Virus record (IMG/VR): IMGVR_UViG_3300031760_006869
Span: 1 to 39,768 of that record
DNA: 39,768 nucleotides
Strand: one strand, 5' to 3'
Source: a virus
In this document: positions 1 through 39,768 of the stretch, piece by piece
Layout of the letters: each line of letters begins with the position of its first letter
Numbering within the stretch: the stretch's first letter is position 1
Translations under genes and position numbers: made by a program
The notes under the pieces: model-generated
The model's database searches: none
The model's input: only the letters and a program-made list of their open reading frames with translations
Told to the model about the DNA's origin: nothing

Positions 1-127
1 TACGAATTGACATAAGTATACATTTGTTGTTGCAGTTTCTGTTCCATATGTAGCAGTGAATGTGGTATCACTTGAAACTTCAACATCATATAATGTGAAA
101 ATTCCTAAATTATTCGTTATACCGCTG
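1..127. repeat. 127-bp exact direct copy of 39546-39672 (circularisation / assembly-graph branch overlap)
   Basis: Base-for-base identity from tacgaattgac... to ...ataccgctg. The copies diverge immediately after the CCGCTG core (ttaaacgaa vs aaaaacgaa). Confidence 0.95.
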
Positions 128-136
128 TTAAACGAA
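113..136 (-). other. Putative inversion (recombination) site 3; on minus strand TTCGTTTAA-CAGCGG-TATAACGAA
   Basis: 9-bp imperfect inverted arms around a 6-bp asymmetric core shared with the sites at 37794 and 38401. It heads the reversed cassette C. Confidence 0.85.
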
Positions 137-1670: not shown

Positions 1671-4600
1671 ATGGTGACAACACAAAAATTCTATGCTAAA
1701 AACATAACACAAACTTCAGAAAACACAGTGTGGAATAGTACTAATCCTCAAAATCCACGTAAGTATAGGCAGTTTGTAAATTTAGATGCCTTGAAGGCAG
1801 ATGACTCAAATTATGCAACATGTAGCAACCTTGCAGGTAAGAATGGGACCCATAACCGGCCTTCAACTGTTACTTTCACTAATTTTAATATCAGTTTGCC
1901 AACGGATATTATCATTAAAAAGATTGTTGTAGGTTATGCACATAACAAGGTAAGTTACAGCAGCAAGACAGCTTATCCTAATGTAGGTGCACCTACAATT
2001 AGCTTGATAAATGTTAGTGCTAGTGGAAAAGGGAATGCAGTTCCTATAAATTATTCTAAATACACTAAAAGTTTCAGCATTTCACCAAACAGGTCTAAAG
2101 TTATCAGCAGCAATTTCGGTGTTAAGATAAATTACCCAGTCAACAGTAACACTAATCCTGGAGCAATCAAGTTAGGTTACTGTTGGGTACAGGTGGTTTA
2201 TGAAAAAGTACAGAAACAAGTGAGCGGAGCGGTTAAAAAGACTACAACTTCTACAAATACTCAGATTGTAGAGGATATTGTAGGGATTAACAGCACAGCG
2301 ACTAGTGTTTTTGTAGGGGATACGTGCCTTATTGATGTGGATGTTACAACTTCAGCCGCTAACACTCCACTGAAATTTGAAATAGATCTTGGAGAAGATT
2401 TCACATTCGTGGAAAAAACCGAAGGTGATGGGACAATAACCAGCGATGATGGCCTTTTCTGGGAAGTTCTCACTGCAAACACCACAGCACATATACAATT
2501 CAGCGTCATAGGGGCAACAGTAGGAACACATTATATAATAATTACAGATGTCACCAATCCAAATGATACAAAAATTGTAAAGAAGATTGGTATTGTAACC
2601 TTGGCGGAGCAATTGGTATGTTATCCTAGCCTTCCAACAGATGGCATTGAAAACGATACCGTAACATATACGCTTGAAGTGTTTAGCACAAACCCTTTAG
2701 CTGTTAATAAGGAATTGGAAGTTACTTTGCCTCCGGAAATTGTTATTGATGGTGTTGATACTGATTATGGAAGTGCAACTTTTGAAAATGGTGCGGAAGA
2801 GAACCTCATCACTTGGGAAGTGGAATTCCAAGAGCAACATGCAGAGATTGAAATCACTGTAGAGCTAACTAGCAGTGGAGTTTACTCTCAAGTGTTTAAA
2901 GACGTCACTGATGAAGAGCATGTAATAAACACATGCTCTATCCATGTGAAGCCGGAAACATTAACTGTACCGTTCTACAGCATTACTGAAGTGGCAGATG
3001 AGATGTATAACCGCTTTGGCCAAGGCGTGAATTACAATGTGTCATGCTACATGAAGGTAGAGATCACTGATGACCCAGAAACTGTAGCGGATGAGCAGGA
3101 CCTTTTTGAAACATACGCATATAATTACCGTTTAGGTGTTGTCCAGGGGGATTTCCAGAACGAGATTGAAATGCTTGAAATCGCAGAATGGTCTGACCCA
3201 ATAAGCAACCTTGGAGAATGGGAGCTTTTAACCGTTAACTTCAACTTTGAAGAGGGCAAACCGATACACATCATAAGGACTGGTGAATACATTGAAAACC
3301 AGGCCACATTTATGGATGTCTACTTCTCTGAAGCATGCATAATAGAGCAAAGCGTGAATGATGGTTTTGAATTGCCAGGCAATTATCCTGTCCCTATACA
3401 TGGGATAAACACTCCAATAGGTTATAATGATGACCTTGAGGATGTTGAAGAGGATGCAATAGTAAGCCCTTCGGTTTTCAATATGGCTAAGCTTGAAAAC
3501 ACTACTGGCGTTAGGTTATATGATCTTGATACTGATGAGTTAGTGCTGCTAAATGCAGTTGTGGAAGGTGTGAGCGTTCATTTGGATGTGCAGACCGATA
3601 AAAGCACAAACCTATTATGCAGATTGGTTATGCCTAACGGCAAGGTAGGTTCAAGGAGCATAAACCTTGAAGATGAAACCAATGGGCCGATAAGCATAGG
3701 TGGAAAGTTTGACCTTTGGGGATTGGACTTTGAGGACTTTAACATAGAATCCTTGGAGGATGTTGAGATAGAGGTCATTGCACAGAACCCTTATCTCTAC
3801 GATAGTGTTCTTGAAATCACTAATGCATTGCTTGAATATCATTATCTGGAATTGGATGATAGTTTCATTGAATTCTGGATAAGCAAGGAACAGACCATTG
3901 ATGATGATACAGGCAAGGCTGTTGAGAAATGGATTAGCAGCAGATATTACAATATGAGCCTGAGAAATGCTGAAGGAGTGCTTGGTGCAAACAATGATGT
4001 CAGCTATTACCAGGTAAACGGTTCGGATAAAACCATCCCTTACTTATCAAATATTGTAAGTAAGAACCTTGACCTTGAGTTCAGCATTGGAAATTGCAGC
4101 ATTGAAGAGGCTACAATATTCCTGCAACGTGTGGGCAAATTATTCAGCAATAATAGGGATGATTTTAACAACCCATACTTGAATAAGATTAAGTTTTCAC
4201 ATATCCCTGATATTTTCTATGAGTATATCATGGAGGACCATATCAAGGAAAAGATTGAAACTGGAATCTACAAATGTACTGTTAGTTTGAAAATCCCAGC
4301 AGGTACTGCCTATAGCATTGAAGAGTCTGTGACAGTAAGTCAAGGTGCAAACAATGGTATCGCAAAGGTTAGTCCTGTAATACAATTGTTGGCCTTGGAT
4401 GATACTGTAGACCTCACAGAGAGAAAGTCAGGGCAGAACCTTAACCTTATCGCTACTGGAACCAATGACATAACCGCTAACGATTATATTGTTATTGACT
4501 GTGAAAACATGAAAGTTACCAAAAACACATTAGAGGATGACGGTACTTTCACCACAGTTGACATTACAGATCATGTTGACTTTGACAGCAAATGGTTTAA

Positions 4601-9652: not shown

Positions 9653-10071
9653 TTTGACTTAGTTCTCGGTAAGTCAAAATTCTTGGGTATAGTCAATGTT
9701 GGGTTTTAATTGACTACTCCTCGGTGCTGTTTCTGCATACTTGTACTGTTCTTGTATTGCTTGTGGCCACTCCTAGGAATGTGGTCACATTAAACAGCTT
9801 TAAATAATCTACTTTTTTTCATTAAATTATTTCTTTGCATATGCTCTTTTGAAAACATTTAAATCTTATTTTATTCAATATTTATACTGAGGAGTGTTCT
9901 TTGTAATTGTTATTGATATGGCCCTAACCCAAGTCATATTAAAAAAATAAATACTAAATATGGTATGTGTTTTTTTAATTAAAGCTAGGCTTGGCTATAT
10001 CCAGGGATTCTTACCGAGAACTAAGCGTTCCTTGTAGTCAAGGCCTTTCTATAGGAGGGATTGGCCATGAC
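9653..10071 (+). ncRNA. Candidate large structured RNA B / cis-regulatory leader with multi-stem fold and possible pseudoknot
   Basis: Five nested helices whose only non-Watson-Crick pairs are G:U on the + strand, plus a hairpin occluding the downstream RBS and start codon (see findings). Confidence 0.6.
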
Positions 10072-10141: not shown

Positions 10142-10451
10142 ATTTTCATACTTGATTAAGTCTATTCTTTAGTTACTAGGGATTCGAGTTTTTTATTTAG
10201 TTCACTTACTTTTTATTAATTTTTCTCGTAGTAATGATTGTTTGGAATGCTCCTCTTTTACTAGGAACTATTTTTTTCATTATTTATAATTTTTTCACTT
10301 TTTTTCTTTTTTTAGACAAGTTTCGTAAAATTTTAATTTGTTCGTATAATATGAGATTGTTTAGGTTTCTAATTTTATATACTAGTTTTTACAGAATAAT
10401 AATCACTCTTTTTTAAATATTAAAAAAACATAACCAAGCCAGAAAATATCC

Positions 10452-10476
10452 ACTTGCTTATTTGGAATAAGCAAGT
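10452..10476. promoter_or_regulatory. Perfect palindrome ACTTGCTTATT-TGG-AATAAGCAAGT (attP core or operator candidate)
   Basis: 11-bp perfect arms, about 165 bp upstream of the recombinase start. Confidence 0.35.
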
Positions 10477-10640
10477 AAACAATAGTAGGCTTTGTAAATC
10501 AGAACAAAAACAAACCAAACATTCATAGGCTAAACATTGAAAACTAGGTAAACAAAATCAAGCTTTATTAGTTTTCACATGCTCTATACAACAAAGGCAA
10601 AAATATTTAAAAAAGATAAAAAAATATGAAGTGATTAAAA

Positions 10641-12017
10641 ATGAAGAGAAACAATTTTTGCCAAACCGACAAGCTACTCCATCAAAGGGTAAAAGACTTA
10701 TCAAAGTCAAGCCAAAAGGAATACAATTATGTCTTCGATGACATATACCACCTGACAGGAAGAACACCTACAGAACTAGTAAAGATTGGACTTCAGGAAC
10801 AAGATCCATACGCAACCAACGAAAAGGGAGAGAAAACATACGAATACCTACCATTCAGAACCATAACCAGTATCCATGAGGAATATGAGGAATACCTGCG
10901 AAAAAATAGCAACATAAAGGAATCAACCATCAAAGGAAGATTGCTATACTTCAGAAGCTTATTCAATAAGCATAGGATAGAACTTCCAGACATGCCAATA
11001 TTCCACATCAAAAAACCACGTACAAGATTAAAGGAACTGCCTTTAGACAGTGAATTGAAACTAGCTATTGAATTGTCAACAGAACCAGTGCAACCTTTAT
11101 TATTCCTGACACCAAGGGTAACAGGCCTTCGTTTAAGTGATATAGAAACCTTCACCTATAACACAGTATTGGAAGCAACAAAACTTTATCATGACGGAAC
11201 ACTTGAAGACCTATTGAGCAAGAACCCTTATGAGATCATACCACGTTTTGAATTAGACCCTGTGAAAACAGAAAAGCAAGGTAACCTTTGCATAACATTT
11301 GCCACTCCAGAATGGACATATTATTTCTTCAGATACACCAAGTGGAGACAAAGGAAATATGAGGAAGCTGTAGATGAGCTTGAAAGATTGAAGCATGATG
11401 TGAGGGCAAAGAACAAGCATCGCAAAAACCGTATTGAAAAAAGGATACAGAAACTGAAAATCACTCCAGAATCCCCATTGTTCATTTCAAATTTATCCAG
11501 GGTAACCGGCTTGACAAAGGGAAGCATGGGAAGATTATTCTATGACATGAATGAGAAACTAATGTATGAATTAGGGCCTGATTATAATTATAAGAATGAG
11601 GATAACAATTACGGCCGTTTCAGAGCACATAACCTTCGTAAGCTATTCAGTACAACATGCAGGGTAAATATGGTTAAAATAAATGTTGAAAATCGTAACG
11701 ATAAGTTCAGGGAATTAGACATAGTCTCATTGTTCACAGGACATACTCCTCCAAACATGAGCAACAGTGAAGTTTATGATGCTGTTGAGGAGGATAGTTT
11801 TGATAGTGAATTGAGACAAGTGTATACTGCTCTTGTACCTTTCAACACAATCTATCGTGAGCAGTATGATTTGGAGCAGGAAAGACAAAGGGCTTTAGAA
11901 CTTCAGAAAGAGAATGAAAGAATCAAAAAGGATATTGATTCTGCAGTGAATCAGAAAATAAGTGAAGTGTTTAACGAGTATGGCATTGAGGAAATACTTA
12001 AAAAACATGGGCTATAA
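10641..12017 (+). CDS. int: Tyrosine recombinase / integrase
   Basis: Catalytic signature TGLRLSD (R)...RAHNLRK (HxxR)...TGH...VY. N-terminal SAM-like core-binding region. Confidence 0.9.
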   Translation: MKRNNFCQTDKLLHQRVKDLSKSSQKEYNYVFDDIYHLTGRTPTELVKIGLQEQDPYATNEKGEKTYEYLPFRTITSIHEEYEEYLRKNSNIKESTIKGRLLYFRSLFNKHRIELPDMPIFHIKKPRTRLKELPLDSELKLAIELSTEPVQPLLFLTPRVTGLRLSDIETFTYNTVLEATKLYHDGTLEDLLSKNPYEIIPRFELDPVKTEKQGNLCITFATPEWTYYFFRYTKWRQRKYEEAVDELERLKHDVRAKNKHRKNRIEKRIQKLKITPESPLFISNLSRVTGLTKGSMGRLFYDMNEKLMYELGPDYNYKNEDNNYGRFRAHNLRKLFSTTCRVNMVKINVENRNDKFRELDIVSLFTGHTPPNMSNSEVYDAVEEDSFDSELRQVYTALVPFNTIYREQYDLEQERQRALELQKENERIKKDIDSAVNQKISEVFNEYGIEEILKKHGL

Positions 12018-12776: not shown

Positions 12777-13568
12777 ATGTTATTTAGTAAAATATGGCCT
12801 CCACATATAATAGAGGCAACAGAAATAAAAGACTGGAAAACATTCAGTTACGAATATGCAATAGACAATGGATTAAATCAACTTGAAGCCGAAAGCTTTT
12901 CAGATATGATAAGCTATTTCATAGGAAACGGTCCAGCAGTACCTTTAGAAAATAAATACTTCAAGGTGCAGAAGATACAGTTTGATATTTTAGCTGCAAT
13001 TCCAGACATAAGGATGGCACATGAAGATGAAAAAGAGCAAATAAGATTATTGTTTGACTATGTTTTCATAATGTACAATGAGAAGATCTACCAGTACACA
13101 AAAAAATCAGAAAAGTTAAGTTTCAGGATAACAAAGAAACAGTATGATGACTTCATGAGTGTTCCTGGAAAAGATAAGGCAGACAAACTGCAAACATTAC
13201 TATCAAGCTATTATCCTCCTACCAGTATTGAGAAAGATACTAATAAACAGAATGTTTGTGTTACTTGCAAGCACTTTGCTATAAAGGGAGGGTATTCTGG
13301 TGAGAACAAATACCTATGCCTTAAAGACCATATTCCAAATGCCCTTAATATTGGTATCAATTGTGATGACTATGAGAAAATATCTAAGGAAGATTATGTG
13401 AGATTAGAAGTAGCCCCTCGTTATGGCAGAACAGTACAGCAAGAGAGAGAAATCATGGAAGCATTAAACAATGGGAAAAAAGTTCTTTTAGTTGATCATG
13501 AAACATTGAAGAATAATCTCCTAGGACAGTTCCATGTAATCTATAAGAATGCTGATAAAGATGAGTGA
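12777..13568 (+). CDS. Hypothetical protein with possible RHH-like segment and Cys4 motif
   Basis: AGGAAGTGA RBS. Contains LSFRITKKQYDDF... and CVTCKHF...C...CDDY. Confidence 0.7.
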   Translation: MLFSKIWPPHIIEATEIKDWKTFSYEYAIDNGLNQLEAESFSDMISYFIGNGPAVPLENKYFKVQKIQFDILAAIPDIRMAHEDEKEQIRLLFDYVFIMYNEKIYQYTKKSEKLSFRITKKQYDDFMSVPGKDKADKLQTLLSSYYPPTSIEKDTNKQNVCVTCKHFAIKGGYSGENKYLCLKDHIPNALNIGINCDDYEKISKEDYVRLEVAPRYGRTVQQEREIMEALNNGKKVLLVDHETLKNNLLGQFHVIYKNADKDE

Positions 13569-17018: not shown

Positions 17019-17097
17019 ATTATTATTATATTATTAAAATATTTTTTTTATTTATTATATTGAAGGTATAACGAAGTAAATTTAAAGGTGATATGAA

Positions 17098-37503: not shown

Positions 37504-38397
37504 ATGAGTATTTGTGATAAGATTAATACTGCAGGGGAGACATTAGAAGCTAATCTCACTGCAAGAGGTATAAGTTGTGATTTCGGTAAGAATAGTGATG
37601 GTAAGGATACAATCCAGGATATGGCAGAGATGATCACTGCATCTAATTTGCGAGGTATTGGTGATGCCATTATCCATATATCAGCGAGTAGACCGTATTT
37701 GTTATCTGGTGAGAAGACTGATTTGATTGTGACTTTGCATAATGGTGTAGGTGCTCCGTTAGCAAACAAGAGTGTAACTGTGTCAGATGGTACTTCGTTA
37801 TACAGCGGTTTAACAAACTTGAATGGTACTTTTACCTTATATGATGTTACTGTTTCATCTAACACCACTTTCACTGCAAGTTATGGGTCTGTGAGTAATA
37901 CTTGTACTGTTGAGTATTGTACCTTTGTTGATTATGCAGTTAAAGACAATCATAACCATAATTATTTCAATCAAGCAGGTACAAGCAAGGTAACAATTAC
38001 CGAAGCCGATGGGTATAAGGAGTTCAAGACAATCAGTACAACAGCAGGGAATGTATATATTGGCTCATCAACTTCTTATACTGGCTTTGATGTAGGGGAT
38101 ACTTGGACTATCATATATGATAAACTGTACATTAATGGGTATAATGTTGCTTTCCAATGCTATAATAGCTCTACAACAGTAAGTATCAACTCTACAACAT
38201 TGCTTTCACATAATAGTGATTTTCAGGAATTGAAATTCGTATGCGATGGCTCATCAATCAAAGCATATGTCGATGGTGTATACAAGACACAAACCAGTTA
38301 CACTTCAACTGGACACGGATATTTGAGAATCAATCTTAACAATAACAATGGAGCATCACAAGTAACATTCCGAGCAAAAAATATCCGAATTTTATAG
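37504..38397 (+). CDS. Phase-variable receptor-binding / adhesin protein: constant N-terminus (37504-37803) plus expressed cassette A
   Basis: Internal recombination site at codons 97-105 (SLYSGLTN). C-terminal ConA/lectin-like pattern (ELKFVCDGSSIKAYVDG). Confidence 0.8.
   Translation: MSICDKINTAGETLEANLTARGISCDFGKNSDGKDTIQDMAEMITASNLRGIGDAIIHISASRPYLLSGEKTDLIVTLHNGVGAPLANKSVTVSDGTSLYSGLTNLNGTFTLYDVTVSSNTTFTASYGSVSNTCTVEYCTFVDYAVKDNHNHNYFNQAGTSKVTITEADGYKEFKTISTTAGNVYIGSSTSYTGFDVGDTWTIIYDKLYINGYNVAFQCYNSSTTVSINSTTLLSHNSDFQELKFVCDGSSIKAYVDGVYKTQTSYTSTGHGYLRINLNNNNGASQVTFRAKNIRIL
37794..37817 (+). other. Putative inversion site 1 TTCGTTATA-CAGCGG-TTTAACAAA (inside the coding frame)
   Basis: Matches sites 2 and 3 and marks the start of homology among the cassettes. 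Confidence 0.85.
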
Positions 38398-38428
38398 GGT
38401 TTCGTTTTTCAGCGGTATAACGAATAAT
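38314..38428. repeat. 115-bp exact inverted copy of 39654-39768
   Basis: Reverse complement checked by eye: cacggat...tttcgtttttcagcggtataacgaataat. Confidence 0.95.
38401..38424 (+). other. Putative inversion site 2 TTCGTTTTT-CAGCGG-TATAACGAA
   Basis: Lies 3 nt after the cassette A stop and heads cassette B. Confidence 0.85.
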
Positions 38429-38998
38429 CAAGGGACATTCACCTTATATGATGTGGAAGTTACTGATACTATTACAATGTTTACTGCCACATATTCAAGT
38501 GTTAGTGCAAGTTGTAAGGTTGAGTATTGTTTATTTGTTGATTATGCAGTTACAAGTAAATATAACACTAATTATACTGTGGGTAATGCCGTAACAAAGA
38601 CAGTAGGAGACAATTACACCACATTATCATCTACCAATTCAAACTCCTCCACAGGTAGAACCGTTTCAACATCAAGTTTCAGTGGAGATTTAATATTGGA
38701 AATGGAAGCCAATATGGTAAATTATGCATCCAATTGGGCTTTCTATCTTGGTTTCAGAAACGGTTCCAACCATAGTATTGCACGATTGCTTGTTGATGAT
38801 TGGAGATACATCAAATTCACAAGAGAAGATGGTGTCTGCAAAGGATACATATCAACAGACAATAATACTTGGTCTGAAATGAGTATGTATTCTGATGATG
38901 TGGGGTCAAGTGATGTGCAATTGGAATTATACATTTACAATGCAACTGGAACTTCACATAGTGTACAATTCAAGAATGTGAGAATCAAAGCATTATAA
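38411..38998 (+). other. Silent C-terminal cassette B (195 codons, no own start)
   Basis: Open from the site core: SGITNNQGTFTLYDVEV...EYCLFVDYAV...VQFKNVRIKAL. Paralogous to cassette A. Confidence 0.85.
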
Positions 38999-38999
38999 T

Positions 39000-39092
39000 G
39001 TTTCAGTAGATTATGAAGTTTTTGTATTTGAAATCAATAGTGGTGGGGATAACATCAAGTACAGTAATTTCAGAATGTACAGTATTGATTAA
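39000..39092 (+). pseudogene. Remnant 3' end of a fourth cassette (D)
   Basis: VSVDYEVFVFEINSGGDNIKYSNFRMYSID* resembles the cassette C-termini. No site or 5' part. Confidence 0.55.
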
Positions 39093-39113
39093 CCCTCTCT
39101 GATTCTGAAATTC

Positions 39114-39671
39114 TTAATAAATCGCAAAATTTTTATATGAAAATTCTACAGTTGCATTTTGTCGGAAACCAATCGCATAAATCTCATTCATAGTCCTATC
39201 ATATTCAGCATCTATTACTCCATTTAAGTATCTTCTAACTTTTGTACCAGTTATTTCAACACGATAACTTCCAATGTTAGAACAAGTCCAAGTGAAATAA
39301 GTATTATCTCCCCTAATCTCAAAATTCGGGGTTCCAGTTGTTATTTCTGTGATTTCAAATTCCACATTGAAAGGAGCAGTATAAAGTTTTGTAGAAGACC
39401 AACTACCACTTCCCCCACTAAAATATGCTTGAGCACCACTTGGGGAGGTTATTTTCAAGTTAGTGGCATTGTCTGTCCTTGTTCTTGTGAATGAAGAGTT
39501 TTGATTATACCAAGTATCATTATGTTTTGTACTTGTTCCATAATCTACGAATTGACATAAGTATACATTTGTTGTTGCAGTTTCTGTTCCATATGTAGCA
39601 GTGAATGTGGTATCACTTGAAACTTCAACATCATATAATGTGAAAATTCCTAAATTATTCGTTATACCGCT
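39114..39671 (-). other. Silent C-terminal cassette C, inverted (185 codons)
   Basis: Open from the site core: SGITNNLGIFTLYDVEV...YLCQFVDYG...FSYKNFAIY. Confidence 0.85.
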
Positions 39672-39768
39672 GAAAAACGAAACCCTATAAAATTCGGATA
39701 TTTTTTGCTCGGAATGTTACTTGTGATGCTCCATTGTTATTGTTAAGATTGATTCTCAAATATCCGTG

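Follow-up and report, generated by a model that had tools for sequence, protein, structure and literature searches.

The window analysed here, the whole 39,768-nt stretch of IMG/VR virus record IMGVR_UViG_3300031760_006869, carries a tail-fibre/adhesin gene whose constant N-terminal part is followed by one expressed cassette (A) and two silent ones (B and C), with short recombination-type sites at the cassette boundaries (Table 1). The constant part is kept in about 100 homologues and is 92% identical in the related contig L005. From S2 the reading frame continues for 198 aa, and from the minus-strand site for 188 aa. Pairwise identity among the three cassettes is only 31-35%, while their starts have about 50 nt in common at 76% identity. 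The 115-bp gap between cassettes B and C contains no ORF.

Table 1. Features of the fibre locus, the contig ends and the integrase region (positions in the window)
Feature	Coordinates	Strand	Description
Constant N-terminal part (97 aa) of tail-fibre/adhesin gene	37504-37793	+	ORF 37504-38397
S1	37794-37817	+	24-mer match; spacer CAGCGG; right arm degenerate (TTTAACAAA)
Cassette A, currently expressed	37818-38397	+	Stop codon 38395-38397
S2	38401-38424	+	Direct relative to S1; 4 nt past the cassette A stop; heads silent cassette B
Cassette B, silent	38425-38998	+	In frame with S2; 35% identical to cassette A
Cassette C, silent	39114-39657	-	Reverse orientation; 31-32% identical to A and B
S3, as assembled at the contig end	39658-39681	-	Hybrid: S2 left arm, spacer, S3 right arm
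Contig tail	39682-39768	-	Second, inverted copy of the cassette A 3' end; alternative junction, not extra genome
S3, parental state	113-136	-	Joins the downstream flank; left arm TTCGTTTAA
attP core	10452-10476	+	Perfect 9-bp inverted arms (ACTTGCTTA), 7-bp spacer TTTGGAA
P0001	10641-12017	+	Divergent tyrosine integrase; only virus-encoded recombinase; rival invertase candidate

Recombination sites and cassettes

The consensus 24-mer was searched for across the whole window with up to three mismatches, and 100 shuffles served as the control. Four matches were found, compared with none expected from the shuffles. Each match consists of 9-bp inverted arms around a 6-bp spacer, CAGCGG, that is constant in all four. 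S1 and S2 are spaced 607 bp apart, and the left arm of S1 together with the preceding TAC equals the left arm of the host dif at 12 of 12 bases. A Xer/dif core site has two inverted arms, each about 11 bp long, separated by a spacer of 6 bp, and the same plan is seen here, with arms of 9 bp (12 bp at S1) and an invariant 6-bp spacer. The frame of the fibre gene across S1 reads S-L-Y-S-G-L-T-N.

Much of this had been anticipated. The original prediction had described the sites, their arm variants and the constant CAGCGG spacer, all of which were recovered by the 24-mer search, and had noted that the site encodes S-L-Y-S-G-L/I-T-N, which was confirmed in the reading frame of the gene. Its assignment of the sites to a tyrosine-recombinase, dif-like architecture is supported, the arms being those of the host dif. 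The accompanying comparison with loxP in the same register was wrong in detail, since loxP has longer arms (13 bp) and an 8-bp spacer. The proposed extent of 37794-38424 does contain sites, but the system is larger, spanning 37504-39681 and wrapping to position 136.

One constant N-terminus, three cassettes and three in-frame sites in the orientations +, + and - correspond to the organisation of a shufflon of the R64/Rci type. The best explanation of the locus is a three-cassette shufflon that exchanges the C-terminal receptor-binding part, about 190 aa long, of a tail-fibre/adhesin protein. A dedicated recombinase gene adjoining the cassettes was found neither in the window nor in its relatives; the genes next to the cassettes encode Ig-like structural proteins. 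The absence of an adjacent invertase had been predicted, together with the caveat that such a gene might be missing only through assembly; in the uninterrupted relatives L009 and L010 the layout is the same and no invertase is adjacent.

Evidence for inversion

The two ends of the window record alternative arrangements of the locus. Positions 1-127 are identical to 39546-39672, with divergence beginning within the left arm. The final 87 nt (39682-39768), read in reverse complement, match 38314-38400 exactly, an interval that comprises the 3' end of cassette A and the S2 left arm. The head of the window joins cassette C and S3 to the downstream flank, and the tail joins cassette C and a site to inverted cassette A. 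Given these head and tail repeats, the sites at 113-136 and 39658-39681 represent a single physical site in its parental and recombined states, so that the locus has three physical sites, not four. The tail junction is the product of inversion between S2 and S3 and gives direct evidence that inversion took place in the sampled population, where both isomers were present.

The window is a closed circle of about 39.5 kb belonging to a Methanobrevibacter virus, and its assembly broke at the invertible region; closure follows from the end overlap and from the uninterrupted relatives. The IMG/VR record is labelled linear and 78% complete, whereas the end overlap and the relatives indicate a closed circle. 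L009 and L010 cover the region without interruption: the constant part is followed by a site with its cassette, by two reverse cassettes that each have a site, and by a 494-aa Ig-like gene. The same gene lies at the start of the window, and its adjacency to the cassettes was confirmed in both relatives. L005 has two cassettes only, a layout that may be the product of deletion between direct sites.

Comparison of the junctions located the exchange. The left arm of a site stays with its flank (TTCGTTATA at the constant part, TTCGTTTAA at the downstream flank) and the right arm stays with the cassette start. Identical cassette 5' ends were found joined to either left arm, constant or flank, in the window, L005 and L009. 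Joining to either arm, together with the junction seen within the sample, confines exchange to the 7 nt CAGCGGT. The (+,-,-) layout is converted to the (+,+,-) layout of the window by inversions alone, and any cassette is reachable in the expressed slot.

The host dif palindrome and XerA

The original prediction had called for a search of the host chromosome for the same 24-mer. The exact pattern of the full site was absent from 185,579 species genomes, so the same 24-mer is not carried by the host; a search with the arms only, in 26 species genomes of the genus of G001 (a Methanobrevibacter MAG that carries a related provirus, described below), did find the host counterpart. A palindrome with the arms of the viral sites and the spacer CTACAG occurs singly in 8 of the 26 genomes and on two contigs in a ninth. 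The consensus arms of the viral sites equal those of the host palindrome at 18 of 18 bases, and the spacers CAGCGG and CTACAG differ at three of six positions in either orientation. At the five loci examined, the host arms extend to 12 bp through TAC...GTA and the palindrome lies in ORF-poor, AT-rich intergenic DNA. Among 151 Methanobacteriaceae genomes, 54 showed a match with up to two mismatches, mostly in one copy; a control pattern showed none.

The position of the palindrome was examined in the complete genome G004 (2,937,203 bp), where orc1/cdc6 occupies 1-1143 and the palindrome lies at 1,480,135 (50.4%). GC skew was sampled in twenty 20-kb stretches. All 11 stretches as far as 1.46 Mb had a positive skew, the five that follow between 1.50 and 2.10 Mb had a negative one, and past 2.10 Mb it was weak and of mixed sign. 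Coding-strand bias flips where the GC skew switches. Judged by its location at the skew switch and about 180 degrees from orc1/cdc6 in G004, the host palindrome is, on sequence grounds, the Methanobacteriaceae dif. In G050 and G093 the palindrome and cdc6 are separated by 48-52% of the genome. For the complete genomes G099, G103 and G131, the distance between the best dif-like match and the top cdc6 match is just 13-25% of the genome; Thermococcales dif sites are likewise off-centre (PMC2958812). Sites of the form TTAGTTATA...TATAACTAA in G005, G015, G016 and G021 were also considered as dif and were rejected, as they are without the extended palindrome.

XerA was identified with NF040815 in G001, G003, G004 and G022, at about 355 bits where the cut-off is 220; its gene lies at C1:922165-922998 in G004 and is also found in L042. 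A single XerA exceeds the cut-off in G004 and in G022; G003 has a second protein above it, and G001 encodes further tyrosine recombinases. To our knowledge, XerA of Methanobacteriaceae has never been characterised. The XerA of P. abyssi recombines dif without partner proteins (PMC2958812).

Other dif-like sites were encountered during these searches. In G004 (L047, C1:2134000-2153900), direct dif-like sites with the spacer CTGCGG lie at 4496 and 16138, 11.6 kb apart, on either side of an ORF of 3054 aa in this complete Methanobrevibacter genome, and two more degenerate sites are nearby; the region may be a Xer-excisable adhesin module. Two short G003 contigs, C102 and C103, carry a perfect-arm dif-like site with the spacer TCCATA in opposite orientation (L048 4777-4800 and L049 4593-4616). 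Both contigs end at this site, perhaps because the assembly broke there at a further element that recombines or is circular. Single non-coding dif-like sites were seen in IMG/VR contigs L059 (9832-9855), L054 (7646-7669), L076 (423-446), L060 (6774-6797), L050, L062 and L066, each with its own spacer and most with the TAC/GTA extension toward 12-bp arms. These contigs may come from further elements that have Xer-type sites, or from host DNA that includes dif.

Fibre sites in other viruses

The dif arms are kept in the fibre sites of ten viruses belonging to at least three structural types: the Mu-like siphovirus of the window, a virus with baseplate-J and sheath proteins (L035), and giant Ig-like plus MCM or primase replicons (L044-L046). 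The spacers of these ten viruses are CAGCGG, CAATGG, CTCAGG or CACCTG. Partner sites carry one common spacer per virus in all nine viruses that have partner sites on the DNA examined. CTCAGG and CAGCGG both encode Y-S-G, AGC to TCA being a synonymous serine change; because this codon swap rewrites the spacer, the protein does not dictate the spacer sequence. On L008, two direct neighbours have different spacers (10294-10317, CAATGG; 10902-10925, CAGCGG), and the contig ends before any partner; the mismatch would prevent deletion between those two sites.

All the shufflon-bearing viruses examined have integrases of one broad family, which score 151-531 bits with the family profile, so the presence or absence of the gene cannot separate XerA from the integrase as the inverting enzyme. 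The integrases of the window and L035, the one pair compared, are 25% identical. L037 and L038 have the integrase and lack both sites and cassettes. Arms that stay constant, spacers that are private to a virus yet matched among its sites, and integrases that diverge would be expected where the arms are recognised by a conserved host enzyme and partners are chosen by spacer homology.

Megablast of half of the window against a phage collection gave no match, and IMG/VR yielded nothing either to an exact-pattern scan for the full site or to a scan seeded with the protein of the upstream gene. A scan of metagenomes gave seven loci, six of them unrelated or matched by chance; L002, L003, L004 and L007 are one unrelated conserved sequence.

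The viral integrase and its attachment site

As a single sequence, P0001 had no Pfam or PHROG match, and a PDB search returned noise only. It has homologues in Methanobrevibacter down to an E-value of 1e-74, several of which carry PF00589, and in their alignment R164, K209, H330, R333, H368 and Y379 are invariant or nearly so. The P0001 profile matched the XerA structures 5hxy and 4a8e, the best being 5hxy (E 8e-11); likeness to the host XerA is restricted to the catalytic motifs. Homology and the conserved R-K-H-R-H-Y set identify P0001 as a divergent tyrosine recombinase. The prediction that the sole recombinase of the genome lies at 10641-12017, about 10.5 kb away on the circle, was thus correct: it is a tyrosine integrase by homology and lies 10.5 kb from S3. 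Searches of the closed genome with PF00589 and PF00239 gave no match, no XerA-type gene (NF040815) was found in the window, and Pfam and PHROG searches of the remaining window ORFs revealed no second recombinase. The other ORFs identified were portal, Mu-F-like, tape-measure, Ig-like, transglutaminase, endolysin, Sak4-like, HNH and ASCH proteins.

The attachment site was located through a provirus with a 98% identical integrase, at 7333-46201 of contig C46 (50,436 bp; L021-L023) in G001. Window positions 10458-10640 match one provirus junction and 10327-10471 the other. A three-sequence alignment gave an 11-nt common core, TTTGGAATAAG, which lies at 10461-10471 in the window and in both provirus junctions. 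The attP core is 170 bp upstream of int, where no other such palindrome occurs. The provirus splits a host gene of the TctA family, one part of which covers profile positions 2-198 and the other 233-422, and the flanks of the provirus carry Hmd, HcgG and other host genes. No tRNA gene was found in the window.

As read from these junctions, the integrase substrate demonstrably differs from the fibre sites in both arms and spacer length. In the cleavage register, the attP and dif arms are identical at two of nine bases. In a shifted register, the attP palindrome (window 10451-10477) agrees with the host dif (L026 1498-1527) at 8 of 10 bases with CG swapped to GC, the attP arms being 3 bp closer together than the dif arms. 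This likeness may be a trace of shared ancestry between integrase and Xer, or a coincidence. The left flank of attB contains CAGCGGTTT, like S1, which is probably due to chance. No copy of the fibre site that could serve as attP was found near int; the sole near-match in the window, at 17051-17075 in an AT-rich region, combines a perfect right arm with a 7-bp spacer and an AT-rich left arm and probably also arose by chance.

The G001 provirus has a structural module different from that of the window and an analogous inverted site pair with the spacer CACCTG. Sites on its contig lie at 9669-9692, 10398-10421, 11777-11800 and 13531-13554. Two degenerate sites on C46, with the unmatched spacers CACCGG and CAGCAG, may be decayed partners.

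Discussion

Our preferred reading is that the host XerA is probably co-opted through dif mimicry, and that private spacers would insulate the viral sites from chromosomal dif. It is favoured because the arms of the fibre sites equal those of the host dif, and because the att core of the integrase differs from them in sequence and spacer length. The original prediction had left two options, a co-opted host Xer-like enzyme or an integrase that doubles as invertase; the dif-identical arms speak for the former, and the distinct att core speaks against the latter. Both the choice of XerA as the enzyme and the role of the spacers as insulation are what we infer, the former from site identity. This reading assumes that XerA is active with arms of 9 bp, or where one arm of a site is degenerate.

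In the mechanism that we propose, in-frame 24-bp sites at the boundary between the constant part and the cassette would mimic dif, with the same arms and spacer length and a different spacer sequence. XerA would bind both arms of two sites and cleave at the spacer borders, and strands would be exchanged across the spacer through a Holliday intermediate. Arm binding, spacer-border cleavage and the Holliday intermediate are established for Xer and other tyrosine recombinases; their operation at this locus is inferred here. Since XerA would always be present in the host and, in the species tested, recombines minimal dif sites unaided, the virus would be supplied with an invertase without a gene of its own. 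Sites in inverted orientation would yield inversion, and all three cassettes would be reachable by inversions alone; sites in direct orientation might lead to cassette loss, and S1 and S2 could delete cassette A. The virus-specific spacer CAGCGG would block complete exchange with chromosomal dif (CTACAG), and private spacers would likewise block exchange with co-resident viruses that bear other spacers. As P. abyssi XerA is partner-independent (PMC2958812), inversion on the provirus or on the replicating genome is plausible.

The viral integrase might itself act as the invertase, with the fibre sites serving as secondary, arm-independent core sites, and we regard this as unlikely. It is the sole recombinase that the virus encodes, a family member accompanies the shufflon in every relative examined, and XerA is the best solved relative of its profile (5hxy, E 8e-11). 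The resemblance between attP and dif arms in a shifted register could hint at related specificity, and phiCh1 offers a precedent for a viral tyrosine recombinase that inverts fibre genes, as cited in PMC8371274. However, the integrase's own core departs from the fibre sites at all but two of nine arm bases in the cleavage register and has a 7-bp spacer against their 6 bp, and integrases only 25% identical would all need the exact arm specificity of the host dif. The occurrence of the integrase in L037 and L038, which have no sites or cassettes, and the confinement of its likeness to host XerA to the catalytic motifs also count against it. It gives no reason why the arms should equal those of the host dif.

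That some other host recombinase with dif arm specificity, either a second Xer-like paralogue or the integrase of a resident element, carries out the inversion seems to us quite improbable. The second above-cut-off protein of G003, the further tyrosine recombinases of G001 and the dif-like sites with other spacers in host DNA are in its favour, but the second paralogue is not conserved, G004 and G022 having a single XerA above the cut-off, and the family-wide conservation of the arms fits a universal XerA/dif pair. We give very little credence to the idea that no site-specific enzyme is involved, so that the junctions reflect homologous recombination between the short cassette starts or assembly chimeras of co-existing strains. 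Cassette starts do have about 50 nt in common at 76% identity, and the recombinant junction derives from metagenome assembly; nevertheless, exchange points fall within the same 7 nt in several lineages, and identity between S1 and its partners is too short for homologous recombination. The nucleotide palindrome, the co-variation of spacers among partners and the identity with dif would all be left unexplained.

Among known inversion systems, the locus is most readily set beside the R64 shufflon (Rci, sfx sites), in which several cassettes are likewise served by one constant N-terminal coding part, the sites are short, asymmetric and within coding sequence with one arm conserved and the other variable, and multiple inversions choose the expressed adhesin C-terminus. 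Unlike R64, which has rci beside its cassettes, no recombinase gene is adjacent here and the sites copy the host dif. The int1 system of the haloarchaeal virus phiCh1 (tail-fibre genes 34/36) is also found in an archaeal tailed virus, and its tyrosine-recombinase-type inversion swaps fibre C-termini. It differs in two features that do not occur here: its recombinase gene is within the segment that inverts, and its sites are clusters of 30-bp repeats. No recombinase gene is embedded between inverted fibre genes in the window, the 115-bp B-C gap being free of ORFs. Tail-fibre C-termini also alternate by DNA inversion in the Gin system of Mu, the Cin system of P1 and the Min system, whereas these use a serine invertase encoded next to the segment, 26-bp sites with a crossover of 2 bp, and an enhancer; a serine invertase of the Gin/Cin/Hin type was not found in the closed genome, where PF00239 is without a match.

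Use of host Xer at dif-like sites on a mobile element is shared with IMEX (e.g. CTXphi), plasmid cer/psi sites and Acinetobacter pdif. Those are bacterial cases of integration at dif, dimer resolution and module movement, whereas the present locus involves a proposed inversion of coding sequence in an archaeal virus that integrates elsewhere by its own integrase. Integration at the host dif by Xer, as in IMEX, is not what was observed, as the related provirus occupies a TctA-family gene through a different core. Cre/loxP and its heterospecific lox variants are alike in their minimal palindrome, similar inner arm and choice of partners by spacer identity; they differ in having 13-bp arms and an 8-bp spacer and in requiring Cre, and a Cre-like gene is absent here.

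Programmed fibre switching and the hijacking of Xer by mobile elements are both already known. In the literature we found no paper on these sites, on a Methanobrevibacter dif sequence or on Xer-driven fibre switching. Nor did we find a description of phase variation by Xer/dif mimicry in a viral receptor-binding protein, or of XerA being exploited by an archaeal virus; the MSTV1 paper does not describe fibre inversion.

If the proposed reading is true, it would explain how a shufflon can run without an invertase gene of its own, and it would provide the first sequence-level assignment of dif in Methanobrevibacter and its relatives. The rule that it predicts for partners is the same arms plus a matching spacer. 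In its broadest form, to which we give about even credence, viruses of Methanobacteriaceae would use XerA as a free invertase through dif mimics in the receptor-binding gene, the 6-bp spacer of each lineage being a private address orthogonal to chromosomal dif and to other resident viruses, and the same logic may mobilise host adhesin modules with flanking dif-like sites. Such a mechanism would bear on the host-range plasticity of viruses infecting rumen and gut methanogens.
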